DNA of 64,000 nt from Alphaproteobacteria bacterium. GTDB taxonomy: Bacteria > Pseudomonadota > Alphaproteobacteria > MPNO01. Within the stretch, counting starts at the first letter, position 1; every line of letters begins with the position of its first letter. This document shows positions 27,857 through 38,305 of this stretch, piece by piece. A program made the translations under genes and the position numbers. The stretch is taken from NCBI GenBank assembly GCA_964291675.2, contig OZ219866.1, positions 192,001 through 256,000 of the forward strand, read 5' to 3'. Below the pieces are notes generated by a model that saw nothing but the letters and a program-made list of their open reading frames with translations, did not search any database and was not told the DNA's origin.

Positions 27857-28527
27857 AGCGCGGGCGCCTGGAGCGCGCGGAGGCCGCTTGCGGCGGCGAG
27901 CGGCGCGCCGGTCAGCGCCTGGAGCCCGGCGAGGTCGAGGCCGGCCACGATCTCGCGCACCGCGAGCCCGTCCGCCGTCACCTCGATCACCGCGAGATCG
28001 GTGTAGATCCGGTCGACCGCCGCGCGCCCGGTCAGCGGGTAGGTCGCGCGCTCGACGATCTTGGGCTCGCCGCGCCGGGTCACGTGGTCGGTCATGGCGT
28101 AGACCGCCTTGGCGCCGATCGCGAGGTCCATCGCCCCGCCGACGCCGGGCACCGCGCCCGCCGCCCCGGTCGACCAGTTGGCGAGGTCGCCATTGGCCGC
28201 CACCTGGAAGGCGCCCAGGACGCAGAGATCGAGATGCCCGCCGCGCACCATGGCGAACGAGTCCGCGTGGTGGAACAGCGCGGCGCCGGGCACCAGGGTG
28301 ACCGGCTGCTTGCCGGCGTTGATCAGCTCCTCGTCCTGGTCGGCCTCCGGCGGCTCGGGCCCCATGCCCAGAATGCCGTTCTCGCTGTGGAACACGATCT
28401 CGCGCTCGGGCGGCACGAAGTTGGCCACCAGCACCGGCTGGCCGATGCCGAGATTGACCACCGCCCCGTCCGGGATGTCCTGGGCGATGCGCCAGGCGAC
28501 CTGGTTGCGCGTCAGCCGATGTTTCAC
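27853..28527 (-). CDS. 3-oxoacid CoA-transferase subunit B (PcaJ/ScoB-like)
   Basis: VNLGIGQP, HSENGILG, INAGKQ, RGGHLD and VGGAMDLA; GTG start overlaps the subunit A stop. Confidence 0.9.
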   Translation of the reverse strand: MKHRLTRNQVAWRIAQDIPDGAVVNLGIGQPVLVANFVPPEREIVFHSENGILGMGPEPPEADQDEELINAGKQPVTLVPGAALFHHADSFAMVRGGHLDLCVLGAFQVAANGDLANWSTGAAGAVPGVGGAMDLAIGAKAVYAMTDHVTRRGEPKIVERATYPLTGRAAVDRIYTDLAVIEVTADGLAVREIVAGLDLAGLQALTGAPLAAASGLRALQAPAL

Positions 28528-28535
28528 GTGTAACA
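28520..28535. promoter_or_regulatory. parS-like site (1 mismatch) within the CoA-transferase A/B gene junction
   Basis: TGTTTCACGTGTAACA. Confidence 0.65.
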
Positions 28536-29234
28536 TTCGCCCCTCAGGATCGCCGCGCGCTCGCTCATCGGCTCGGGGACGCGGACCACGCGGTCGACGA
28601 AGATGCCGGGCGTGACCACGTGCTCGGGGTCGATCCCGCCGAGCTCCACGAGGGTGCGCGCCTGGACGATGGCGGTCTTCGCGGCCATGCACATCAGCGG
28701 GCCGAAATTGCGCGCCGCCAGCCGGTAGGCGAGGTTGCCCCAGCGGTCCGCCCGCTCCGCCTTGACCAGCGCGAAGTCGGCGTGCAGCGGGTACTCCAGC
28801 ACGTAGTCGCGCCCGTCGATGGTGCGCGTCTCCTTGCCCTCGGCGAGCTCGGTGCCGGCGGCGGTGGGGGTGTAGAACCCGCCGAGCCCGGCGCCGGCGG
28901 CGCGCAGCCGCTCGGCCAGCGTCCCCTGCGGCACCACCTCCAGCGCCACCCTGCCCTCGCGGTAGAGCCGCTCGAACACCTCGGAATGCGACGACCGCGG
29001 ATAGGTGCAGACCATGCGCGCGACCCGGCCGCGCTCGAGCAGGGCGGCGAGCCCGACATGGCCGTTGCCGGCGTTGTTGTTGACCACGGTCAGGCCGCTC
29101 GCGCCGAGGTCGATCAGCGCGTGGATCAGCTCGGTCGGCGAGCCCGCCTCGCCGAACCCGCCGATCAGCACCGTCGCGCCGTCGCCGATCCCGGCGACCG
29201 CCGCGGCCGCGTCCGCCACCCGCTTGTCGATCAT
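28524..29234 (-). CDS. 3-oxoacid CoA-transferase subunit A (PcaI/ScoA-like)
   Basis: DGATVLIGGFG, PQGTLAERLRAAGAG, ADRWGNL...ARNFGP and VVTPGIFVD. Confidence 0.92.
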   Translation of the reverse strand: MIDKRVADAAAAVAGIGDGATVLIGGFGEAGSPTELIHALIDLGASGLTVVNNNAGNGHVGLAALLERGRVARMVCTYPRSSHSEVFERLYREGRVALEVVPQGTLAERLRAAGAGLGGFYTPTAAGTELAEGKETRTIDGRDYVLEYPLHADFALVKAERADRWGNLAYRLAARNFGPLMCMAAKTAIVQARTLVELGGIDPEHVVTPGIFVDRVVRVPEPMSERAAILRGECYT

Positions 29235-29315
29235 CCGCGGAATCTAGGCAAGCGCCGCCCCGCCGTCCACAGTGGGGCGGTTGACCGGCCCCGCCGCCGG
29301 GCCCAGTCTGGCGCC

Positions 29316-30563
29316 ATGCAAGCGCTCTGCCGCGACTGCTTCGCCCAGCCCGACGGGGCGGAATGCGCGGCCTGCGGCTCGGCCCGCATCCTGCGCCACG
29401 CGGAGCTCGGCCGGCTCGCCATCGCCCATGTCGACTGCGATGCCTTCTACGCCGCGGTGGAGAAGCGCGACGACCCCGCCCTCGCCCACCGGCCGGTGCT
29501 GGTCGGCGGAAGGCGGCGCGGCGTGGTGATGGCCGCCTGCTACGACGCCCGGCGCTTCGGGGTGCGCTCGGCGATGCCGATGTTCGCCGCGCTGCGCGCC
29601 TGCCCCGACGCGGTGACGATCCGCCCCGACATGAAGAAATACGCCGCCGTCTCGCGCGAGGTCAGGGCGCTGATGGAGGGGGTGACGCCGGCGGTCGAGC
29701 CGCTCTCGATCGACGAGGCGGCGCTCGACCTCGCCGGCACCGAGCGCCTGCACCGCGCGAAGCCGGCGGCGACGCTCGCCCGACTGCAGCGCCGCATCGC
29801 CGCAGAGATCGGCATCACCGTCTCGATCGGCCTCAGCCACAACCGCTTCCTCGCCAAGATCGCCTCGGGCGTCGACAAGCCGGGCGGCTTCTTCGCCATC
29901 GGCAGGGGCGATGCCAGGCGCTTCCTCGCGCCCCGCCCGGTCGCCCTGATCCCGGGCGTGGGCGAGGCGATGGAGCGCCGGCTCGCGGCCGACGGGATCG
30001 CCACGATCGGCGACCTCCAGGCGCGGCCCGAGGCCGAGCTCGCGAGGCGCTACGGCGCCATGGGCCGCCGGCTTGCCCGGCTCGCGCGCGGCGAGGACCG
30101 GCGCCCGGTGGCCGGCCGGGCGATGCGCAAGAGCCTCTCGGCCGAGACCACCTTCGCGGACGACATCGCCGCCCCGGACGCGCTCGCCGCCCGGCTCTGG
30201 CCGCTCGCCGAGACGGTCGCGCGCCGGCTGAAGGCCGAGGGGATCGGCGCGCGCACCGTCACGGTCAAGCTCAAGCGGGCGGATTTCCGCATCCTGACCC
30301 GGAGGGCCACGCTCGCCCACGCCACCCAGTCGGCCGATGCGATCTGGCGCGCCGGCGCGAGGCTCGCGGCCAAGGAGGCCGACGGCACGCCGTTCCGGCT
30401 GATCGGCATCCGCGCGTCGAACTACGCCCCCGCCCAGGAGTCCGACCCGCCCGACCTCGCCGACCCCGGCGCGGCCGCCCGCCGCGACGTCGAACGCGCC
30501 ATCGACACCATCCGCGAGCGCTTCGGCGAGGACGCCATCGGTCACGGACGGGGGCTGGGTTAG
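29316..30563 (+). CDS. dinB: DNA polymerase IV (alphaproteobacterial type with N-terminal Cys ribbon)
   Basis: CRDC...CAACGS, IAHVDCDAFYAAVEKRD, SIDEA and LAKIASGVDKP. Confidence 0.93.
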   Translation: MQALCRDCFAQPDGAECAACGSARILRHAELGRLAIAHVDCDAFYAAVEKRDDPALAHRPVLVGGRRRGVVMAACYDARRFGVRSAMPMFAALRACPDAVTIRPDMKKYAAVSREVRALMEGVTPAVEPLSIDEAALDLAGTERLHRAKPAATLARLQRRIAAEIGITVSIGLSHNRFLAKIASGVDKPGGFFAIGRGDARRFLAPRPVALIPGVGEAMERRLAADGIATIGDLQARPEAELARRYGAMGRRLARLARGEDRRPVAGRAMRKSLSAETTFADDIAAPDALAARLWPLAETVARRLKAEGIGARTVTVKLKRADFRILTRRATLAHATQSADAIWRAGARLAAKEADGTPFRLIGIRASNYAPAQESDPPDLADPGAAARRDVERAIDTIRERFGEDAIGHGRGLG

Positions 30564-30573
30564 GGGCGGCTAA

Positions 30574-30626
30574 TGTTTCACGTGAAACAATGGTCAACCA
30601 TGCTGACCTATGTTTCACGTGAAACA
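30574..30626. promoter_or_regulatory. parS: Tandem pair of parS sites
   Basis: Two perfect TGTTTCACGTGAAACA (30574-30589 and 30611-30626). Confidence 0.9.
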
Positions 30627-30913
30627 TTAGCCCGATCCGGTACGACATCGCGTCCCCCGGGGACGGGGGCGCCCCGCGCCCCGCAGCGGCGGGCGCCGCA
30701 TTCGCTCGCCGCGCCAGCACTCTGGCGGAGCGACTTGCGAGAGCGGTTCCGGCAGGCGCCGCAACCTCGCCCGACCCGTCATTTCTCGCGCAACGTCGCC
30801 CTCCGGGCCGAGGTTGCCCGTGGATGAGCGGGAAAATTCGACCAACCGGCTGCGTGACCAAGACCGCCCTTTTTAGACACCCCGATCCGGTCCCGGCTCG
30901 ATGCGGGGTCTGT

Positions 30914-30932
30914 CCTTAACTCCGGGTTAAGG
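30914..30932. promoter_or_regulatory. TTAA-N7-TTAA box upstream of the small-peptide cluster
   Basis: CCTTAAC-TCCGG-GTTAAGG; both a palindrome and an 11-bp-phased TTAA repeat, 60 bp before ORF 30993. Confidence 0.5.
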
Positions 30933-30992
30933 CCGACCCGTTACGTTCTTCCTGTCCACGCGATAGGACGACACAAGAGAGGGAACAAGGGC

Positions 30993-31271
30993 ATGGGTAC
31001 GACCGATCTCTTCCGGATCGCCATCTTCGCCACCAGCCTGGCGTTCTTGACCGCCGTGGGCCCCGCTAGCGCGGGCGCCGAGCAGGGGTCGAAGAAAGTT
31101 TGCCAGACCGCATGCGGCAATGCGGCGAACACCATGATGAACCAGAAGAAGACGGTGAAGACCGTCGAGCCGACCGAGTTCGGGGGCCGCTCGAAGAGCC
31201 GTACCGAGCCGGCCTATACGCCCGACCAGGTCAACGACTTCCTCAACAAGTGCTGGGGCAATTGCAAGTAG
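30993..31271 (+). CDS. Small secreted protein with twin CX3C motifs
   Basis: Purine-rich RBS; signal ending ASA; CQTAC near the mature N-terminus and CWGNC at the C-terminus. Confidence 0.7.
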   Translation: MGTTDLFRIAIFATSLAFLTAVGPASAGAEQGSKKVCQTACGNAANTMMNQKKTVKTVEPTEFGGRSKSRTEPAYTPDQVNDFLNKCWGNCK

Positions 31272-31362
31272 CAATAGCCGGCAAAGCCCGGTGACGGGTC
31301 GCGGAACACTACGCCCGCGACCCTCCCACCGGAACCCATCGAATTCCACGAGGAGACAAACC

Positions 31363-31698
31363 ATGAGCATCCGCAACCTCACGCACCTGGCCGTCGCCGC
31401 GATCCTGCTTGCGAGCGCCAGCAACGCCGCGACCGCGAATGCCGAGGAGTCCGGCTTTCGTGTGCTCCCCGGACCGGGCATCAACGCCGGCCGCAACACA
31501 ATCCAGATCAACCCGAGGTTCGAATACAAGCGCCCGGGACGCTCGGGAGGCTACATGCAGCCGAATGTCCTGATTTCGCCGCTTTCCGCTAGGTTTCGAT
31601 CTGCCAAAGTCGGCTACATCTCCCGCAACGGTAGGACCGAAATCTACACCTTCGGCAACGGTCGCACCAGCGGCTTCGGCATTCTGCGGCGTTTCTAG
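31363..31698 (+). CDS. Small secreted cationic Gly/Arg-rich protein ending in Phe
   Basis: AGGAG RBS; MSIRNLTHLAVAAILLASASNAATANA signal; beta-strand-like mature region ending GFGILRRF. Confidence 0.7.
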   Translation: MSIRNLTHLAVAAILLASASNAATANAEESGFRVLPGPGINAGRNTIQINPRFEYKRPGRSGGYMQPNVLISPLSARFRSAKVGYISRNGRTEIYTFGNGRTSGFGILRRF

Positions 31699-31766
31699 AG
31701 GAAGCCGCGAACCTGTCGTGGATGCCACGACAACAGGTAACTCATACTCGAACAGGGAAGCGACCG

Positions 31767-32057
31767 ATGAAGAAATACGCAACCCTCAAGTTGGCTGTAA
31801 CCGCCATCGCCGTGCTGGGAGGATCGGCAGTCATCGGGGCAGCGCAGGCCTTTCCGTCTTGCCTGGCTGTTCCGGCCTCCATTTCCGGCGTGTCGGGCGC
31901 CGTGTGCACCGGCGCGCTTACGGCGGCTATCCCCGTTTGCACAACGCTGTGGCCGGTCGACTTCGGTACCACGTGCGGACTCGCGGTCTCGACTGCCGCG
32001 CTTAGTTGCGGCGTCAGCGTGTCTTCGATTGTCGCCATGATTGCAGCCTGCCTCTGA
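31767..32057 (+). CDS. Small secreted hydrophobic six-cysteine peptide
   Basis: MKKYATLKLAVTAIAVLGGSAVIGAAQA signal; 68-aa near-uncharged mature part with 6 Cys. Confidence 0.72.
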   Translation: MKKYATLKLAVTAIAVLGGSAVIGAAQAFPSCLAVPASISGVSGAVCTGALTAAIPVCTTLWPVDFGTTCGLAVSTAALSCGVSVSSIVAMIAACL

Positions 32058-32184
32058 TGGCGACGTGTCCGCGGGACGGCCTGAAATTCGGCAGAGCCGT
32101 CCCGCGGCACACCGTTCGCCGTCTTCCCAAAAGCCAAATGGAAGTGATCCCATGAGCCGCCTCCCACGGAAGCGACGCCATCCC

Positions 32185-32397
32185 ATGCGGCACGTCCTGT
32201 CGGCCGTTGTCGTCCTTGCGCTCGGCGCCACGCCAGCATTCGCCGGCGCTGCCACCGGAATTGCCGTCACGGCTGCCCTCGCCGCGCCAACGGCGGCGGC
32301 GTGCGCGACCTTCGCCGCCAGCCCCACCGCGCTATCGGAGGCCATCTGCCTCGGACATTGGATCGCCATCGCCGTCAGCTGGCTGGCTCCGCTCTGA
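32185..32397 (+). CDS. Small secreted hydrophobic two-cysteine peptide
   Basis: MRHVLSAVVVLALGATPAFA signal (alternative start 32152); 50-aa Ala-rich mature part with 2 Cys. Confidence 0.65.
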   Translation: MRHVLSAVVVLALGATPAFAGAATGIAVTAALAAPTAAACATFAASPTALSEAICLGHWIAIAVSWLAPL

Positions 32398-32466
32398 CCC
32401 GCCGGGAGGCACGGCTGTGCGATCGATGCCCCGCGCCACGGCGGCGCTCGCCTCCGATTGTGCAGG

Positions 32467-34137
32467 CTATCCGAGCGCCCTGGAACATCGCACCCGGATC
32501 TTCACCAGCGCGCCCCCGCCCTTCCACTTGGTCGACGTCGAAAGCTCGATCGAGCCGCCGCCGCCCCGGAGCCATTCGGCCGCCAACGCCAGGCCGATGC
32601 CGATACCGGATGCGCCCGGCCGCGTATACATTAAGGCTCTGGCCCCCCACTTCAGCAGCAGCTCCCTTTTTTCACGATCCGGTGGGAACCCGGCGCCATC
32701 GTCTTCGATGACAATTTCGACTTCTTCGCCGCAATCCTCGGCGGAAATCTCAATGTTCTTTTCCGCGTGTCTCGCCGCGTTGCGCAACAGGTTGACGACA
32801 ATCGAGTAAAAGCCGAACTGCGTTGTCTTCGCGGACAGCTCCGGGACGCTCTCGGTCCATATCAGCTCTCTCGTGCAGGTTGTTTTCACCGCCACGATCG
32901 CGTCACTCAAGGTGTCACCGATGTCTACGGGATCGCTGGCTTCCGAAAAGTCCCCGATCGACCACCGAATCAGCTGCTTGCTCACACCTTCCAAGCCCGT
33001 CCTTACGCCCTGGGTAGCGCTCGCCACGCCCTTGAGCTGCTCCGGCGATATGGCCTGCCCTTTCTCCGCCGCCGTCGCGATCGAGTTCACTAGCCCGTTG
33101 AGTTGCGCGAGCATCTCGTTCTCGTTGTGAGACATGCCCCTTCCCAGTTCTATCGCGCACGCCATCAAGCGCTCCCGGATTTTTCTGGCCGCCGCCTCCC
33201 TTTCGTCTGCCTCCCTTTCCTTGCTTGCGATCCGCACATCCGCGGCGGCGGCAATTCCCGCCAACTCGCCGGCGTATTCGCCATCGTCTATTGCAGTCAC
33301 GTCCCAATCGTTAAGCCGATCGCGCAACCGATTTGCCTGCCGTCCGAACCGTCCCGCCTTGCGGCCGATCAACCAGCCCAGCGCGAGAACAATACCGGTC
33401 GCGGTGACGAGCGCAATCAAGAACATGCCGTTCTGGACCGGGTCACCTCCCCAATACGGGACGCTCATTCCGGACACCAAAATTCTGATCCTGCCGTTGG
33501 TGCCATCGATTTCTAGGTCCCTGTAACTCTCGTATATGTCGACGCAGCCGACGTCGTCAACGCCCGGGCAGTGCCCATAGGAACGGCGATTGACGGATTT
33601 CCCCTCTTGCGTGCCCCAAATCGCCGCGGACATTCCCTTCGCGCCCTGACGGAAAGCGCCCCACACGTTTTCCAACGTGCCCGTGGTCGGCGGTCGAATC
33701 TGGCACAGATCGTCCTTCTTGTCCTTTCCGATGAGGTTCATATGCAGGTACTTTTCGTATTCTGGTATTCCGTCGACGTTTCGCGCCTTGTCGATGCAAA
33801 CGCTATAGATACATGCCACCGAAGCGCCAGGCCCACAGGGCGACGTTTCACCGACTCGCCCCTGCCTTATCATGCATTTCCTTTGTTCCCTCAAGTCGGT
33901 GCTTGCACAGGCCTCCGTTGAACCGGGTGGCGCCTTCATGCGTCCCTGCACTATCGCTTCCGTCGGCTCTATGACCTGGAGCATGTGGGTATACAGGTTG
34001 TTCTCGGCCTTCTTTTGCACCGAAAGGAGGTAGACCCCATAAAAAGCGAGCAAAAGAATGACCAGCAAATACGCGGCCGTCCGAAAAATGTCCTGCCGAA
34101 GCGAACGCGGTCGTCCGAAGGAGAGGAGCTTACTCAT
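32467..34137 (-). CDS. Sensor histidine kinase with Cys-rich periplasmic domain
   Basis: Two TM helices; atypical H box (MSHNENEML); N box NLLRNAARHA; G1 DDGAGF; G2 GIGIGL; ATG overlaps the regulator stop; lower GC. Confidence 0.85.
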   Translation of the reverse strand: MSKLLSFGRPRSLRQDIFRTAAYLLVILLLAFYGVYLLSVQKKAENNLYTHMLQVIEPTEAIVQGRMKAPPGSTEACASTDLREQRKCMIRQGRVGETSPCGPGASVACIYSVCIDKARNVDGIPEYEKYLHMNLIGKDKKDDLCQIRPPTTGTLENVWGAFRQGAKGMSAAIWGTQEGKSVNRRSYGHCPGVDDVGCVDIYESYRDLEIDGTNGRIRILVSGMSVPYWGGDPVQNGMFLIALVTATGIVLALGWLIGRKAGRFGRQANRLRDRLNDWDVTAIDDGEYAGELAGIAAAADVRIASKEREADEREAAARKIRERLMACAIELGRGMSHNENEMLAQLNGLVNSIATAAEKGQAISPEQLKGVASATQGVRTGLEGVSKQLIRWSIGDFSEASDPVDIGDTLSDAIVAVKTTCTRELIWTESVPELSAKTTQFGFYSIVVNLLRNAARHAEKNIEISAEDCGEEVEIVIEDDGAGFPPDREKRELLLKWGARALMYTRPGASGIGIGLALAAEWLRGGGGSIELSTSTKWKGGGALVKIRVRCSRALG

Positions 34138-34864
34138 TTTCAAGATCGATGTAGTAGCCACGGTTGTTTCCCCGGATTTGTAAACCGGTTTGCTTGCGAA
34201 GGGTGGATAAGTACGAATGCAAAGTGTTCTCTCTGGTAATTCCGACCTGTCGCATCAACACCGCCGACGGGACGGGATATCTGCTCTCGATTAACGCACG
34301 CAAAATAGGAAGCAGATACGCGCGCAGTTCCACGCGTTTTTCAGAGACGTATATGTAGTCCGAGCCCAACCTGACGTTTCCCTTTGTGATTTCGTCGGGA
34401 TTCGGATCGGATAGTCTGCATTCCAGTTTTCTGATGATCTCGACGTGGTACAGGAGGGATTCGATCAGTCGGGGAAATTCCACGCGAAATAACTTGAAAC
34501 CTTCCGGCGTAGTTGGCTTGGCGAAAAAATTTATTGATCCCGCCGTATAACCCTTGATCCGAAATTCAGGTTGGCCATGGTAGGACAATATTACCACTAC
34601 GGTATACCTGTCCTGTTCTATGAAGTAATCGCCGGTCAGCGCCGTAGTGAGGTCGAGCCCGGTCTGCGGATTTCCTTCCGCTTTGAGATCCAGATCCATG
34701 ATTACTACATCATGATGGTATTGTTCGACCTTATCGCGGCACTCATTTGCGGATTGAGCCCAATCCACGTTGCAACGCACTTCTTCGTGCAGCAGCCTCG
34801 ATACTCGGTCGTACCATTCGCGTTCGTCGTCCACGAGGAGTACGCGGGATCCGCTCGTTTTCAT
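34130..34864 (-). CDS. Divergent OmpR-like response regulator
   Basis: RVLLVDDE, DVVIMDLDL, FFAKP receiver motifs; C-terminal ENTLHSYLSTLRKQ...RGYYI winged-helix-like segment. Confidence 0.82.
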   Translation of the reverse strand: MKTSGSRVLLVDDEREWYDRVSRLLHEEVRCNVDWAQSANECRDKVEQYHHDVVIMDLDLKAEGNPQTGLDLTTALTGDYFIEQDRYTVVVILSYHGQPEFRIKGYTAGSINFFAKPTTPEGFKLFRVEFPRLIESLLYHVEIIRKLECRLSDPNPDEITKGNVRLGSDYIYVSEKRVELRAYLLPILRALIESRYPVPSAVLMRQVGITRENTLHSYLSTLRKQTGLQIRGNNRGYYIDLENE

Positions 34865-34887
34865 GTTCCGTTCCGATCGCGAGGCTC

Positions 34888-35145
34888 TCAGCAGGACCAC
34901 GGGACGAAGATGTCCCTGACCCTGCGCCACGGGTCCAGAATCCTGACCCAAAACCCGTTTTGAGCTGGAAATACCGCCAGTACGCGACCGAACCGGCTCG
35001 CTTCCCGAGCGGCTTGCTCGACGCTACAGGCGGCCCAGCCCGGATTCGGGTCGATCATGACGAGAGCGCATAGGATCAAGGCGGCGCGCAGGAAACGGCC
35101 GGCCGACCGTTTGTCGAGGGCCAAGCGTCTGGATGTTTCAGGCAT
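34888..35145 (-). CDS. Small secreted PepSY-like protein
   Basis: Signal-like helix then SVEQAAREASRFGRVLAV...FWVRILDPWRRVRDIFV; directly upstream of the RR-HK genes. Confidence 0.55.
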   Translation of the reverse strand: MPETSRRLALDKRSAGRFLRAALILCALVMIDPNPGWAACSVEQAAREASRFGRVLAVFPAQNGFWVRILDPWRRVRDIFVPWSC

Positions 35146-35788
35146 CGGTCTGGTCCAGCGTTCGTACGACATCGAACAATTATTGTAGGCCAAAGTTCTA
35201 AATCGCGACAGGGTTGTGTCCACAGCGATTTAGCGGGGTAACCGAAATTGCTCGATATTGGGGCAGACAGAGACCGTGATTCTACGGAAAGTATGTATTG
35301 GCCGGCCGACCTCGCCGATTCCGGCTCGCGCGCCGCGCCACTCCGCTCGACTTGGCGGCGTGGGCCCCGGGAATGTTGGCCCCGGACGGAGCGAAGCGGA
35401 GCGGGAAAATCTCACGCCCAGGAGAGGGAGAATTCCGGGACTCTTGTCGCCAACGTGACGGACGATGGGCTGGCGTGGATCGACCACTGAGAGCCGGCCC
35501 GCCGCGCCGGGCGCATACCTGCCCCGTACCCCTCGCGACATGGTCGGCGAATACCGACCATGACGCGAGCGACCGATCCCGTTCGAACCGGATACGCTAC
35601 GGAGCGTCCGGGAACGCTTGCCGACTTCCTTTCCGGCCCTCTATCCGCTCACGGACCGGGTTCGAGCGTCGGTACAGGACTGGTTTCGGGCACGTCCGCG
35701 GATTTCCGCCCGAGCCCGCCCATTTGGATGGGGACCCGACCCGCGGCGCCCGGTACAAGGGGTTTCGCCAGCAACACGGGGTCCCCGC

Positions 35789-36517
35789 ATGCCGAACCGA
35801 ACCATCGCCGCCCTTGCCGCCTGCGCCGCTCTCCTGTCGGTCGCCGCAATCCCGCCCGGCGCCGCCAAGGCCGAGGAGCGCGCCATCTACGCGGCCGCCC
35901 ACGGCAGCACGCTCGGCGCCGGGCTCATGCTGGGATACGACATCTCGCCCGCCTTCTCGGCCCGCGCCGCGGCCAGCTACTTCGCTTTCGGCACGGACGA
36001 ATCCAGCGCCGGCAACGATTATTCGATCGACCTGCAGCTGCTCTCCCTCGGCCTGCTGGGCGACTGGCATCCGTTCGAGAACGGCTTCCGGGTCACCGCC
36101 GGCGGGCTGTTCAACGGCAACAAGATGACGCTCGCCTCCAGCGCCGAGGACATCGAGCTCGGCGGCGGCAGCTATCGCGGCAGCATGGAGGCGGAGCTCG
36201 GCTTCAACGCGATCGCGCCCTATGTCGGGATCGGCTGGACCGGCGGGCGGGCGGACCGGCGCGGCTTCTCCTTCTTCGCCGATGCCGGGGTGATCTTCCA
36301 GGGCTCGCCGAAAATTTCCGCCTCGGGCCGGGTGGAGGGGGCGGGCAACGCGTGCGGCTTCAGCCTGTCCGAGAGCGGCCGGGCGACGGTCGGGGCGGGG
36401 TGCGGGCTCGCGGATCTGCGCGCCGACCTGGAGAGCGAGCACGCCGAGCTCGACGACGAGCTGAGCGCGTTCAACCTCTACCCGGTGCTGATGCTGGGCG
36501 TCGCCTACCGGTTCTGA
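35789..36517 (+). CDS. Outer membrane beta-barrel protein
   Basis: Signal ending AKA; STLGAGL, DWHPFENGFRVTAG, APYVGIGW; terminal YPVLMLGVAYRF. Confidence 0.82.
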   Translation: MPNRTIAALAACAALLSVAAIPPGAAKAEERAIYAAAHGSTLGAGLMLGYDISPAFSARAAASYFAFGTDESSAGNDYSIDLQLLSLGLLGDWHPFENGFRVTAGGLFNGNKMTLASSAEDIELGGGSYRGSMEAELGFNAIAPYVGIGWTGGRADRRGFSFFADAGVIFQGSPKISASGRVEGAGNACGFSLSESGRATVGAGCGLADLRADLESEHAELDDELSAFNLYPVLMLGVAYRF

Positions 36518-36564
36518 GCGCGCCGGCGGCGGGCCGGGCGACGCCCGCGCCCTGCCGCCCTCCT

Positions 36565-36694: not shown

Positions 36695-37843
36695 CTACGC
36701 GTCCCCGCCGTCCGGCGGCAGCCGGAGCAGCAGCCGGACCAGATCGGCCTGCCGCGCCGCGCCGGTCTTGGACAGCACGTTCTTCAGCGTCCAGCGGATT
36801 GTGTTCTCCGAGCGGTCGAGCTCGCGCGCGATGTCGCGCACGGTTCTGCCCTGCCCGAGCAGCACGGCGACGCGGCTCTCGGCGGCGGTCAGCCCGAGCA
36901 TGTCGCCGACCGCCTCCGCATCGAGCCGGCCCGCGTCCGGATCGCGGATGAGAACCGCCACCGCGATCCGTTCCACGCCGAAATCGGCGCGCCGCGGCGC
37001 GACGGGATGCACGTGGACGATCAGCGGCAGGCCGGCCGGACGCCGCACCGGCACGGACCCGCGGGCCGGCATGTGCCCCAAGCGCGGCAGAGCCCCGGAG
37101 ACCAGCCTCCGGAGCTTCGCGTCGTCGCCCGGATGGCCGGCCCGCAGGCCGCCACGCCAATCGTGGATGCCGTCCCTTGCGGCCAGCATCCGCCGCGCGG
37201 TCCGGTTGGCGGACGCGATGGCGCCGCGGCGGTCCAGAAACACCGCGCCGAGCGATTCGTGCTCCAGCAACGCGGTCGCCTCGGCGTGGGCATGCGCCTC
37301 CGCCGCCACCAGCTCGTGGCGCAGGCGGACCGCCTGGCGGATGTGGGGAAGCAGACCCCGGATCCGCTTGAGCCTGTCCGGCCCCCACTCCGACTCGCCG
37401 TTCGCCATGGTCCAGAATACGCAGCCGTCGTCGGGACGCTCGTCCGATTGCCGGTCCACGACCACCGCCATCTGGTCCTGACAGTCGTATTTCGGCTGGA
37501 ACTCGTTGTACATCGGAGAGCTCCGCTTCTCCGCCGGGGTGAACAGCTCCTCGTTGTGGGTCAGCCGCCAGGCCGGCAGCCTGCCGATCCTGGGCACGTT
37601 CTCGCTGAACCTCGCGTAGTTCGCGACCCAGTCGGCGACGATCTCCTGATGCGGGTCGCCGTCGATCCAGCATGCCGCGAAAACGATCCCGGCGTCCCCG
37701 TCGCCGTTCGCCGCGAGCCCCGTGAACTGGCCGCCGTTGAGACCGCAAAGCCGGTCGATCGCCCGAAAGGCGTCGCCCCAGCGCGCATCGTCGAACGCGG
37801 CGTCCAGAAGCGTTTCGACCGTGGATTCGAAGAGATCGTCCAT
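36695..37843 (-). CDS. LuxR-type C-terminal HTH transcriptional regulator
   Basis: MDDLFESTVETLLDAAFDDARW start; C-terminal GLTAAESRVAVLL..G.TVRDIARELDRSENTIRWTLKNVLSKTG..RQADLVR. Confidence 0.85.
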   Translation of the reverse strand: MDDLFESTVETLLDAAFDDARWGDAFRAIDRLCGLNGGQFTGLAANGDGDAGIVFAACWIDGDPHQEIVADWVANYARFSENVPRIGRLPAWRLTHNEELFTPAEKRSSPMYNEFQPKYDCQDQMAVVVDRQSDERPDDGCVFWTMANGESEWGPDRLKRIRGLLPHIRQAVRLRHELVAAEAHAHAEATALLEHESLGAVFLDRRGAIASANRTARRMLAARDGIHDWRGGLRAGHPGDDAKLRRLVSGALPRLGHMPARGSVPVRRPAGLPLIVHVHPVAPRRADFGVERIAVAVLIRDPDAGRLDAEAVGDMLGLTAAESRVAVLLGQGRTVRDIARELDRSENTIRWTLKNVLSKTGAARQADLVRLLLRLPPDGGDA

Positions 37844-38305
37844 GCGGTTGGCTGCCAGCTGTCCCGCCAGCCGTGGGAGACGTTGCGGCCCGCGGGCGAC
37901 CGGGGCACTGTATTCGCGGCCCGCCCTGTTCCGCGCCCCCCAAATTGCGGGGTTAAAGGCGAAAGTCGGGGAATCCGGGACCGATACCGGGAGCGCCGCC
38001 CGGCACGCCGCACACACGCCCGCCTGCGTCATGGCCGGCCGCCGGAACGAGTCCGGGGGGGTCCGGCCACCCATGCGGTCCCACCGGCTCGGCATGGGAG
38101 CCTGTGGGTGCCCGGAACAAGCTCCGCACTGCGATCCGGGACAAGGCCGGCAGATGCCGGCGCGCGGCCCACCCATCTGGGTGGCGACGGGGTCCGTTCC
38201 ACGCTGCAACCTGCCCGCCATGCAGGACGAGTTTCACCGATGGCGCGGGGTCCGGCGCTCTTCCGAAGCCGCCGGATCGACGCCCAGGCGAGACTGGAGA
38301 CAGAC

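Follow-up and report, generated by a model that had tools for sequence, protein, structure and literature searches.

A low-GC islet pairing four small, predicted exported proteins with a cysteine-rich two-component kinase in an alphaproteobacterial genome

Introduction

Why should four genes for small and apparently unrelated exported proteins run head-on into the operon of a two-component system, within a few kilobases of foreign-looking DNA, and do the two sets of genes belong together? The question is raised by an islet of low GC content in the genome of an Alphaproteobacteria bacterium (assembly GCA_964291675.2; about 72% GC, 4.8 Mb, 2 contigs). It lies in a stretch of 64,000 nt, positions 192,001 to 256,000 of contig OZ219866.1, which is the DNA analysed here and is referred to as the window; all coordinates are window positions. 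An initial annotation, made from the letters of the sequence without database searches, described four secreted peptides opposite a PepSY–regulator–kinase operon and proposed a regulated secreted-peptide module with an antimicrobial, membrane-active or host-signalling role. In the present analysis the islet, its open reading frames (ORFs), the small peptides and the two-component pair all stood up, whilst the PepSY label did not. We argue below that the islet appears to have been gained horizontally as one block, that the kinase and small-protein genes likely form a conserved module and, tentatively, that this module serves to sense the cell envelope.

Results

A low-GC islet apparently gained as a single block

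The GC content falls to 0.50–0.65 between about 30.75 and 35.25 kb, reaching its lowest value of 0.496 at 34250–34749, against 0.70–0.78 in the flanks, which bears out the low-GC island of the initial annotation. From the GC profile and comparison with relatives, the foreign islet extends approximately over 30762..35470 (no strand assigned), and it holds seven plausible ORFs, four on the plus strand and three on the minus strand. In the closest relative, G010, which is 89% identical across the segment bearing the dinB gene, the site is empty: window positions 28001–30684 and 35698–36521 align to adjoining positions (locus 3585, 3584), and the block inserted relative to that genome corresponds to 30685–35697. 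The junction in G010 is clean, with dinB and a repetitive extragenic palindromic (REP) repeat directly abutting an outer-membrane-protein gene, such that window position 30684 aligns beside 35698. A second relative, G001, has left-flank sequence in common with the window as far as 30761. The interior of the islet has no real match at the DNA level among 40 relatives, in which matches are limited to the REP-type repeat on the left (about 30600–30785) and a 127-nt repeat on the right (35471–35597); three extra matches of 26–40 nt to the islet are attributable to chance. Because the empty site in G010 is clean and the interior is without a match in the 40 relatives, the islet appears to have been gained horizontally as a single block of ~4.7–5 kb. 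There is no integrase or transposase among its seven ORFs, and there are no tRNA genes in the 64-kb window.

An assembly chimera can be ruled out as the origin of the islet by a contig from the Logan collection (run X1), built independently, which covers 30604–35900 with 0 differences, although X1 is possibly the sample from which the genome itself came. In another study, one run contains an identical piece of 1,094 nt linking the REP element to the first two small genes, P1 and P2. Contigs from runs X2 and X3 inside the islet are identical fragments, which we read as the same strain at low depth and not as independent relatives.

The region 3′ of dinB differs in each of four other relatives (G001, G008, G005 and G003), and G005 has a low-GC patch of its own (0.53–0.58) after dinB and the REP element. 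What follows dinB thus varies from one relative to the next, and the site looks like a hot spot for integration or recombination in the genus.

Four small genes with predicted export signals

The four plus-strand ORFs follow one another with short spacers. P1 (30993..31271) encodes 92 amino acids (aa), has a GC content of 0.48/0.51/0.88 at the first, second and third codon positions (GC1, GC2 and GC3) and is preceded by GAGGGA upstream of its ATG. P2 (31363..31698; 111 aa; 0.54/0.54/0.79) has a GAGGAG Shine–Dalgarno sequence. P3 (31767..32057; 0.57/0.61/0.72) encodes 96 aa, or 111 aa from an alternative ATG at 31722, and P4 (32152..32397; 0.70/0.66/0.79) encodes 81 aa, or 70 aa from an internal Met. 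GC3 exceeds both GC1 and GC2 in the annotated frame of all four, and GC3 periodicity is found in each of the seven ORFs of the islet; in a sliding phase plot the phase changes exactly at the points where the frame changes between genes. Two long antisense ORFs have no GC periodicity. Given this periodicity and the homologues of P2 and P3 described below, the small ORFs appear to be more than chance and to behave as real genes, P4 being the weakest gene call of the four.

Signal peptides were read by eye, as a basic n-region, a hydrophobic core and an AXA-type site. By this reading all four proteins carry Sec-type signals, as the initial annotation had described, with sites ASA↓G, ANA↓E, AQA↓F and AFA↓G in P1, P2, P3 and P4, respectively. 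The predicted mature parts differ widely, and their composition fits the earlier account of them as unrelated (a twin CX3C protein, a basic one ending in F, one with six cysteines and a hydrophobic one with two). Mature P1 (65 aa) is lysine-rich, with twin CX3C motifs and 10 K+R vs 6 D+E. Mature P2 (84 aa) is a Cys-free, basic protein (14 K+R) in which two YxxxNGRT repeats precede a C-terminal RRF; at the DNA level there is a tandem repeat of 30 nt, 80% identical, inside 31614–31668, which gives the two YxxxNGRT units and is followed by the C-terminal GFGILRRF. Mature P3 (68 aa, 6 Cys) and mature P4 (50 aa, 2 Cys) both lack K and R and have grand average of hydropathy (GRAVY) values of +1.43 and +1.30, respectively, and no relatedness between the two proteins was detectable (BLASTP E = 1.3). 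As these mature parts are uncharged and very hydrophobic, retention in the membrane is favoured over release, and mature P3 and P4 are probably membrane-bound.

No curated family in Pfam, NCBIfam, PHROGs or PADLOC, housekeeping families included, matches P1–P4 or the small ORF of the kinase operon. Matches of P4 to Rv2743c (17.5 bits, cut-off 27.7) and Cg1360 (12.9 bits, cut-off 40) are sub-threshold and compositional, and the sequence matches of P1 (E = 1.4) and P2 (E = 0.25) in the Protein Data Bank (PDB) are chance rows. An AlphaFold2 model of P2, built from 2 sequences, reached a pLDDT of 47 and was unusable. The seven ORFs include no ABC transporter, peptidase or immunity family and no modification enzyme or exporter, so that the absence of such genes noted in the initial annotation holds; beyond these seven, the islet has no ORF that matches a family.

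A kinase operon with an eight-cysteine sensor

The minus strand carries, in order of transcription, a small exported ORF of 85 aa (34888..35145; GC1/2/3 = 0.60/0.55/0.73), a response regulator of 244 aa with a receiver domain and a putative C-terminal helix-turn-helix (34130..34864) and a membrane histidine kinase of 556 aa with a HATPase_c domain (32467..34137, alternative GTG start at 34161). The small ORF stops 23 nt before the start of the regulator, and the genes for regulator and kinase share 8 nt. The stop codons of P4 and the kinase face each other 70 nt apart, and thus the two gene sets converge.

In the kinase, two membrane segments flank a periplasmic domain of ~197 aa with 8 Cys. 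All eight are invariant in the alignments of the family (8/8 in A1 and A5), so the eight-cysteine sensor on which the small genes were said to converge is well founded; the cysteines are inferred to form up to four disulfides. The HATPase_c domain (PF02518) is matched at E = 3e-12 (47.4 bits vs a cut-off of 26.4), and an invariant S-H-N-E-N His box (H337 in P0001) lies at the expected spacing upstream of it; at E ≤ 0.1 Pfam recognises no HisKA-type domain. For the periplasmic domain, an AlphaFold2 model (197 aa, 4 sequences; pLDDT 61, pTM 0.66) gives the elements H-H-E-E-H-E-E-E, a long helix at the N-terminus and a sheet of five strands flanked by helices. Its top Foldseek match is the Cache domain of CqsR (E = 0.026). 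In a VIA-align structure search against representatives, PDC/Cache-type sensor domains from kinases, chemoreceptors and cyclases (CusS, WalK, PhoQ, CitA, DctB, CqsR and others) make up 32 of the 36 rows with Z ≥ 5.0, the best at Z = 7.6, although by the calibration of the tool Z values < 8 can arise without a relationship. The domain may therefore be described, with low confidence, as PDC-like in the model.

The regulator matches Response_reg (PF00072) at E = 3.8e-13. Its C-terminal part reaches only 19.2 bits against HTH_11, below the cut-off of 25, and Trans_reg_C is unmatched; by eye it looks OmpR-like. The protein also matches phrog_731, a family of unknown function, over its full length (residues 7–224, E = 5e-11), whilst its sequence matches in the PDB concern the receiver domain only. 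At 50% it is the lowest-GC gene of the islet.

The first gene of the operon had been labelled PepSY in the initial annotation, and this could not be sustained. Neither the 85 aa ORF nor its 45 aa C-terminal part matches any Pfam family at E ≤ 10, and in six-frame searches of the whole genome neither PF03413 nor PF13670 has a match at E ≤ 10. The mature part of the protein, ~47 aa, begins A-C and ends S-C, and a helix-strand-strand-strand pattern is readable by eye, at most a hint of the PepSY fold, in which a helix packs against a small antiparallel sheet.

A rare family of kinases and small proteins

Homologues of the kinase, P1, P2 and P3 were sought in large protein collections. For the sensor region of the kinase (residues 1–300), there are 2 other clusters among 5.8 billion proteins, P0002 (52% identity) and P0003 (40%); over the whole kinase the identities are 64% and 58%, respectively. 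The kinase family thus amounts to three 90%-identity clusters in all in that collection, the other two coming from assemblies in the European Nucleotide Archive (ENA). P2 has exactly one homologue, P0005 (111 aa), which is 63% identical over 111 aa (E = 2.6e-34). For P3, a phmmer search of 1.84 billion representatives gave one true homologue, P0008 (97 aa, 66% identical, E = 2.5e-21), in which 6/6 Cys are invariant and the mature part is conserved, the signal peptide having diverged. A further candidate, P0009, is a repetitive protein of 587 aa with 35% identity over 47 aa in 8 stretches, and was judged compositional. A word-based search of the 5.8 billion proteins for P1 returned 1 match, the protein itself. 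The expectation that the peptide ORFs are conserved is thus upheld for P2 and P3 but not for P1. P2 and P3 appear to be conserved as strongly as the kinase at the same divergence, unlike chance ORFs.

The contigs on which these homologues lie provide a link between them. P0005 is recorded on 4 contigs, the longest of which, at 75,775 nt, is exactly the size of the single contig bearing P0002; the P0002 cluster has further members, P0011 and P0010, on contigs of 9,114 and 6,036 nt, respectively, and the contigs encoding P0003 and P0012 measure about 2.5 kb each. To judge from the equal sizes, a P2-like gene and a kinase homologue likely share one contig of 75,775 nt. This coincidence, together with the fact that the homologues of P2 and P3 come from the same type of source as those of the kinase (ENA assemblies), makes a conserved module of kinase and small proteins likely. 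Linkage of a kinase homologue to a small exported protein is therefore likely for P0002 and P0005, but P0008 lies on a different contig, of 18,659 nt, without a recorded kinase.

Beyond these instances the family is scarce. The kinase, P2 and P3 families are confined to the window genome and a few ENA and Logan contigs, out of 5.8 to 15 billion proteins. Searches with the kinase alignment A1 gave 65 pattern matches in the contigs of 185,579 species genomes of the Genome Taxonomy Database (GTDB), 345 in Joint Genome Institute (JGI) metagenome contigs and 113 in viral contigs (IMG/VR), with 0 confirmed in each. The same was true of the P2 alignment A3 in the JGI metagenome contigs (593 pattern matches, 0 confirmed) and of the P3 alignment A4 in the species genomes (67, 0 confirmed) and the IMG/VR viral contigs (101, 0 confirmed). 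A tblastn search with the kinase against 72,556 plasmid records found no match. In the organism's own genome tblastn revealed no paralogues of the seven islet proteins, the only kinase match at E ≤ 1e-8 being 27% identity over 170 aa in the cytoplasmic residues 382–549, which include the ATPase domain. By these searches the seven proteins appear to be sequence orphans or near-orphans.

Repeats, stem-loops and flanking genes

The left flank bears a REP-type palindromic repeat of the genus (30568..30632, no strand assigned), formed by two inverted copies of ATGTTTCACGTGAAACA (inverted repeat I1 and direct repeat D17). The element recurs in many copies in 11/11 genomes of this genus. The variable region 3′ of dinB has its left edge at this element, whose translation gives rise to the recurring pseudo-peptides MFHVKH and VSRET in many spurious ORFs. 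One hairpin match to Rfam, on the REP element, is due to chance. To the right, the 127-nt repeat of the genus (35471..35597, no strand assigned) includes a 16-nt inverted repeat (I11) and matches G002, G004 (in three places) and G008; it has no Rfam match. A 12-nt direct repeat, GAGCGGGAAAAT (family D10), has a left copy at 30826..30837 and a right copy at 35399..35410, both on the plus strand and each about 60 nt inside the inferred borders. By our own estimate ~0.7 such pairs would be expected by chance in 5 kb, and the one pair, being roughly at chance level, may mark the ends of a mobile segment or be fortuitous.

Strong stem-loops are predicted on the plus strand between the small genes. 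One lies between P1 and P2 (31288..31332), in a spacer that folds at -32.9 kcal/mol (z = -3.86), and a long one follows immediately 3′ of the P3 stop codon (32059..32120), in a spacer that folds at -49.9 kcal/mol (z = -5.72); 0/200 shuffles were equally stable in either case. No U-tract follows either of them, and both could punctuate or stabilise the transcripts of the small genes.

The right flank encodes a small outer-membrane beta-barrel-like protein (35789–36517), with a weak CarO-like match of 18.9 bits, and a LuxR/GerE-type regulator of 508 aa (36695–38221). Both lie outside the islet, since G010 carries both.

Discussion

The reading that we favour, tentatively and at a little below an even chance, is that the islet is a mobile envelope-sensing cassette, in which a PDC-like, disulfide-rich sensor is accompanied by small exported proteins serving as its targets or modulators within the envelope. 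The kinase would read a periplasmic cue, which might be thiol or redox state, a metal or a partner protein, and the regulator would switch on the small-protein genes that face it. The products of these genes would remain in the cell envelope, P1 as a disulfide-stapled periplasmic helical hairpin, P2 as a basic, beta-rich protein and P3 and P4 embedded in the membrane. There, rather than being released as toxins, they might reshape or shield the envelope, or act back on the kinase in the manner of MgrB with PhoQ and DbfQ with DbfS. Retention in the envelope is suggested because mature P3 and P4 lack K and R and have GRAVY values above +1.3, and because the islet has no exporter. There are precedents for small proteins acting in this way. 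MgrB inhibits PhoQ (PMC8404706, PMC10576120). Another paper describes direct binding of DbfQ to the DbfS sensor and a predicted binding of PA2658 to BqsS; the genes for these two PepSY proteins lie upstream of DbfRS and BqsRS, and pairings of a small periplasmic protein with a two-component system are said there to be widespread (PMC12714742).

Several observations weigh against this interpretation. The structural match of the sensor is weak, with a model pLDDT of 61 and every Z value < 8. The spread of GC3 among the islet genes, from 0.88 for P1 to 0.59 for the response regulator, means that the cassette could be a mosaic. P1 is without a homologue, the linkage of P2 and kinase in a second lineage depends on equal contig sizes and not on an inspected contig, and the P3 homologue P0008 lies on a contig without a recorded kinase. 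On the regulatory side, the convergent layout implies separate transcripts for the peptide genes and the kinase operon, 0 sigma-70-like promoters were found, and no motif or k-mers shared among five upstream or intergenic regions rose above shuffled controls; terminator-like sites (7 vs 5.2 expected) are at chance level. Since no motif is shared beyond the shuffles, control of the peptide genes by this response regulator is something that we only infer. There are no RNA runs among those holding the stretch. The regulated secreted-peptide module first proposed is therefore retained in part: the genes appear real, acquired as a block and likely linked, but the lack of a shared regulatory motif counts against the regulation, and the hydrophobicity of P3 and P4 favours retention over secretion. 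Nothing in the analysis points to an antimicrobial or a host-signalling role.

Among the alternatives, the one that survives best makes the small proteins co-sensors or ligands rather than output, with the small protein of the operon, one of P1–P4, or both, binding the sensor domain or the membrane helices in an autocrine or feedback circuit. The layout speaks for it, as the gene for a small exported protein immediately precedes those of the regulator and kinase, like in DbfQRS and BqsPQRS, and so does the distribution of P2 and P3, which is as narrow as that of the kinase family. MgrB offers a precedent for a small Cys-bearing membrane protein acting on a PDC-type sensor (PMC8404706, PMC10576120). 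However, the small operon ORF fails all PepSY models, and it would be unusual for one kinase to have four unrelated partners, so that we regard this alternative as unlikely.

Could the four proteins instead leave the cell? They might be Sec-dependent, unmodified peptides of a bacteriocin- or microcin-like, membrane-active or signalling kind, produced under the control of the adjacent two-component system. Each of the four has a signal peptide and a small mature part, P2 is strongly cationic, and P3 and P4 are Gly/Ala/Ser/Thr-rich, uncharged and furnished with Cys, a composition that we take to resemble that of class II microcins. The islet is also strain-specific and mobile, as competition loci often are. 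In a Gram-negative cell, however, a Sec signal peptide delivers a protein to the periplasm only, and the familiar Sec-dependent bacteriocins come from Gram-positive bacteria, whose cells lack an outer membrane; this counts against release. Reviews do describe Sec-dependent bacteriocins (PMC7285073, PMC3546714). The seven-ORF islet offers no outer-membrane route, immunity gene, lysis gene or PCAT or MFP exporter, none of the peptides has a double-glycine leader, and there is no match to bacteriocin or defence families in Pfam, NCBIfam, PHROGs or PADLOC. With the hydrophobicity of P3 and P4 predicting membrane retention as well, release of the peptides seems improbable.

An accidental adjacency, to which we give the same low credence, would make the kinase operon and the small genes separate cargo that built up in a recombination hot spot, and P4 and perhaps P1 may then not be genes at all. 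The divergence of the site 3′ of dinB in each of the four other relatives examined, the range of GC3 across the islet (0.59 to 0.88) and the strong stem-loops between the small genes would all fit, as would the lack of a homologue of P1 and the weakest coding signal in P4. What argues against coincidence is that homologues of P2 and the kinase occur together again on a contig of 75,775 nt, if equal sizes are a guide, and that P3 is likewise conserved. The single clean empty site in G010 also speaks against it, as does the failure of the kinase and P3 to turn up in the 185,579 species genomes scanned, with none of the seven proteins copied elsewhere in the organism's own genome.

Least probable of all, in our estimation, is a self-contained mobile circuit for peptide sensing, in which the islet's own P2 or six-Cys P3 is the ligand of the eight-Cys PDC sensor, or in which a Sec-dependent hydrophobic toxin is paired with its own sensor; were the ligand version true, the islet would bring signal and receptor together into a new host. 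Returning to the envelope-sensing cassette, its general importance is limited for now, the family being very rare and the evidence indirect. If the small proteins do act as ligands or modulators of the kinase, the cassette would provide a compact and portable system for the control of kinases by small proteins and for disulfide-rich PDC sensing.

How does the cassette compare with systems already described? Bufferin-type copper-binding RiPPs (ribosomally synthesised and post-translationally modified peptides) share with it small Cys-containing proteins with Sec signal peptides, but an MNIO/DUF692 enzyme, a DUF2063 partner or any other enzyme family is absent from the seven islet ORFs, and P3 does not match DUF2282. 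Class II microcins and Sec-dependent class II bacteriocins are likewise small, unmodified, Gly/Ala/Ser-rich peptides, some with disulfides, encoded at mobile, strain-specific loci. The islet differs from class II microcins in having no double-glycine leader, PCAT/MFP exporter or immunity gene, and in combining Sec-type leaders with a bacterium that has an outer membrane. A third comparison is with PhoQ–PhoP and MgrB, with which there is no sequence similarity; MgrB is not known to have a cleavable signal peptide, whereas P3 and P4 have predicted cleavable ones. The likeness lies in the islet sensor, which is PDC-like in the model, and in the small, hydrophobic, Cys-bearing proteins encoded alongside it (PMC8404706, PMC10576120).

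The closest parallel is with DbfQRS of Vibrio cholerae and BqsPQRS of Pseudomonas aeruginosa. In these systems the gene for a small Sec-exported protein likewise lies just ahead of those for regulator and kinase, in the same orientation, and the islet kinase resembles theirs in having a periplasmic sensor domain (PMC12714742). It departs from them in three respects: the small protein of the operon matches no PepSY model, the sensor of the kinase, with its eight invariant Cys, is an orphan by sequence, and there are four extra small exported proteins. The architecture of the operon may thus be called DbfQRS-like, but by sequence its small protein is not recognised as a member of the PepSY family. 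In the available text of the literature on PepSY and two-component systems, Cys-rich kinase sensors, small membrane proteins and Sec-dependent bacteriocins, nothing describes the family of the cassette. The cassette is new as a family and extremely rare, although its kind, a two-component system with small exported partners, is known. Two-component systems with small periplasmic or membrane partners such as DbfQ and MgrB are emerging as a general mode of tuning sensing, of which this cassette would be an extreme case.

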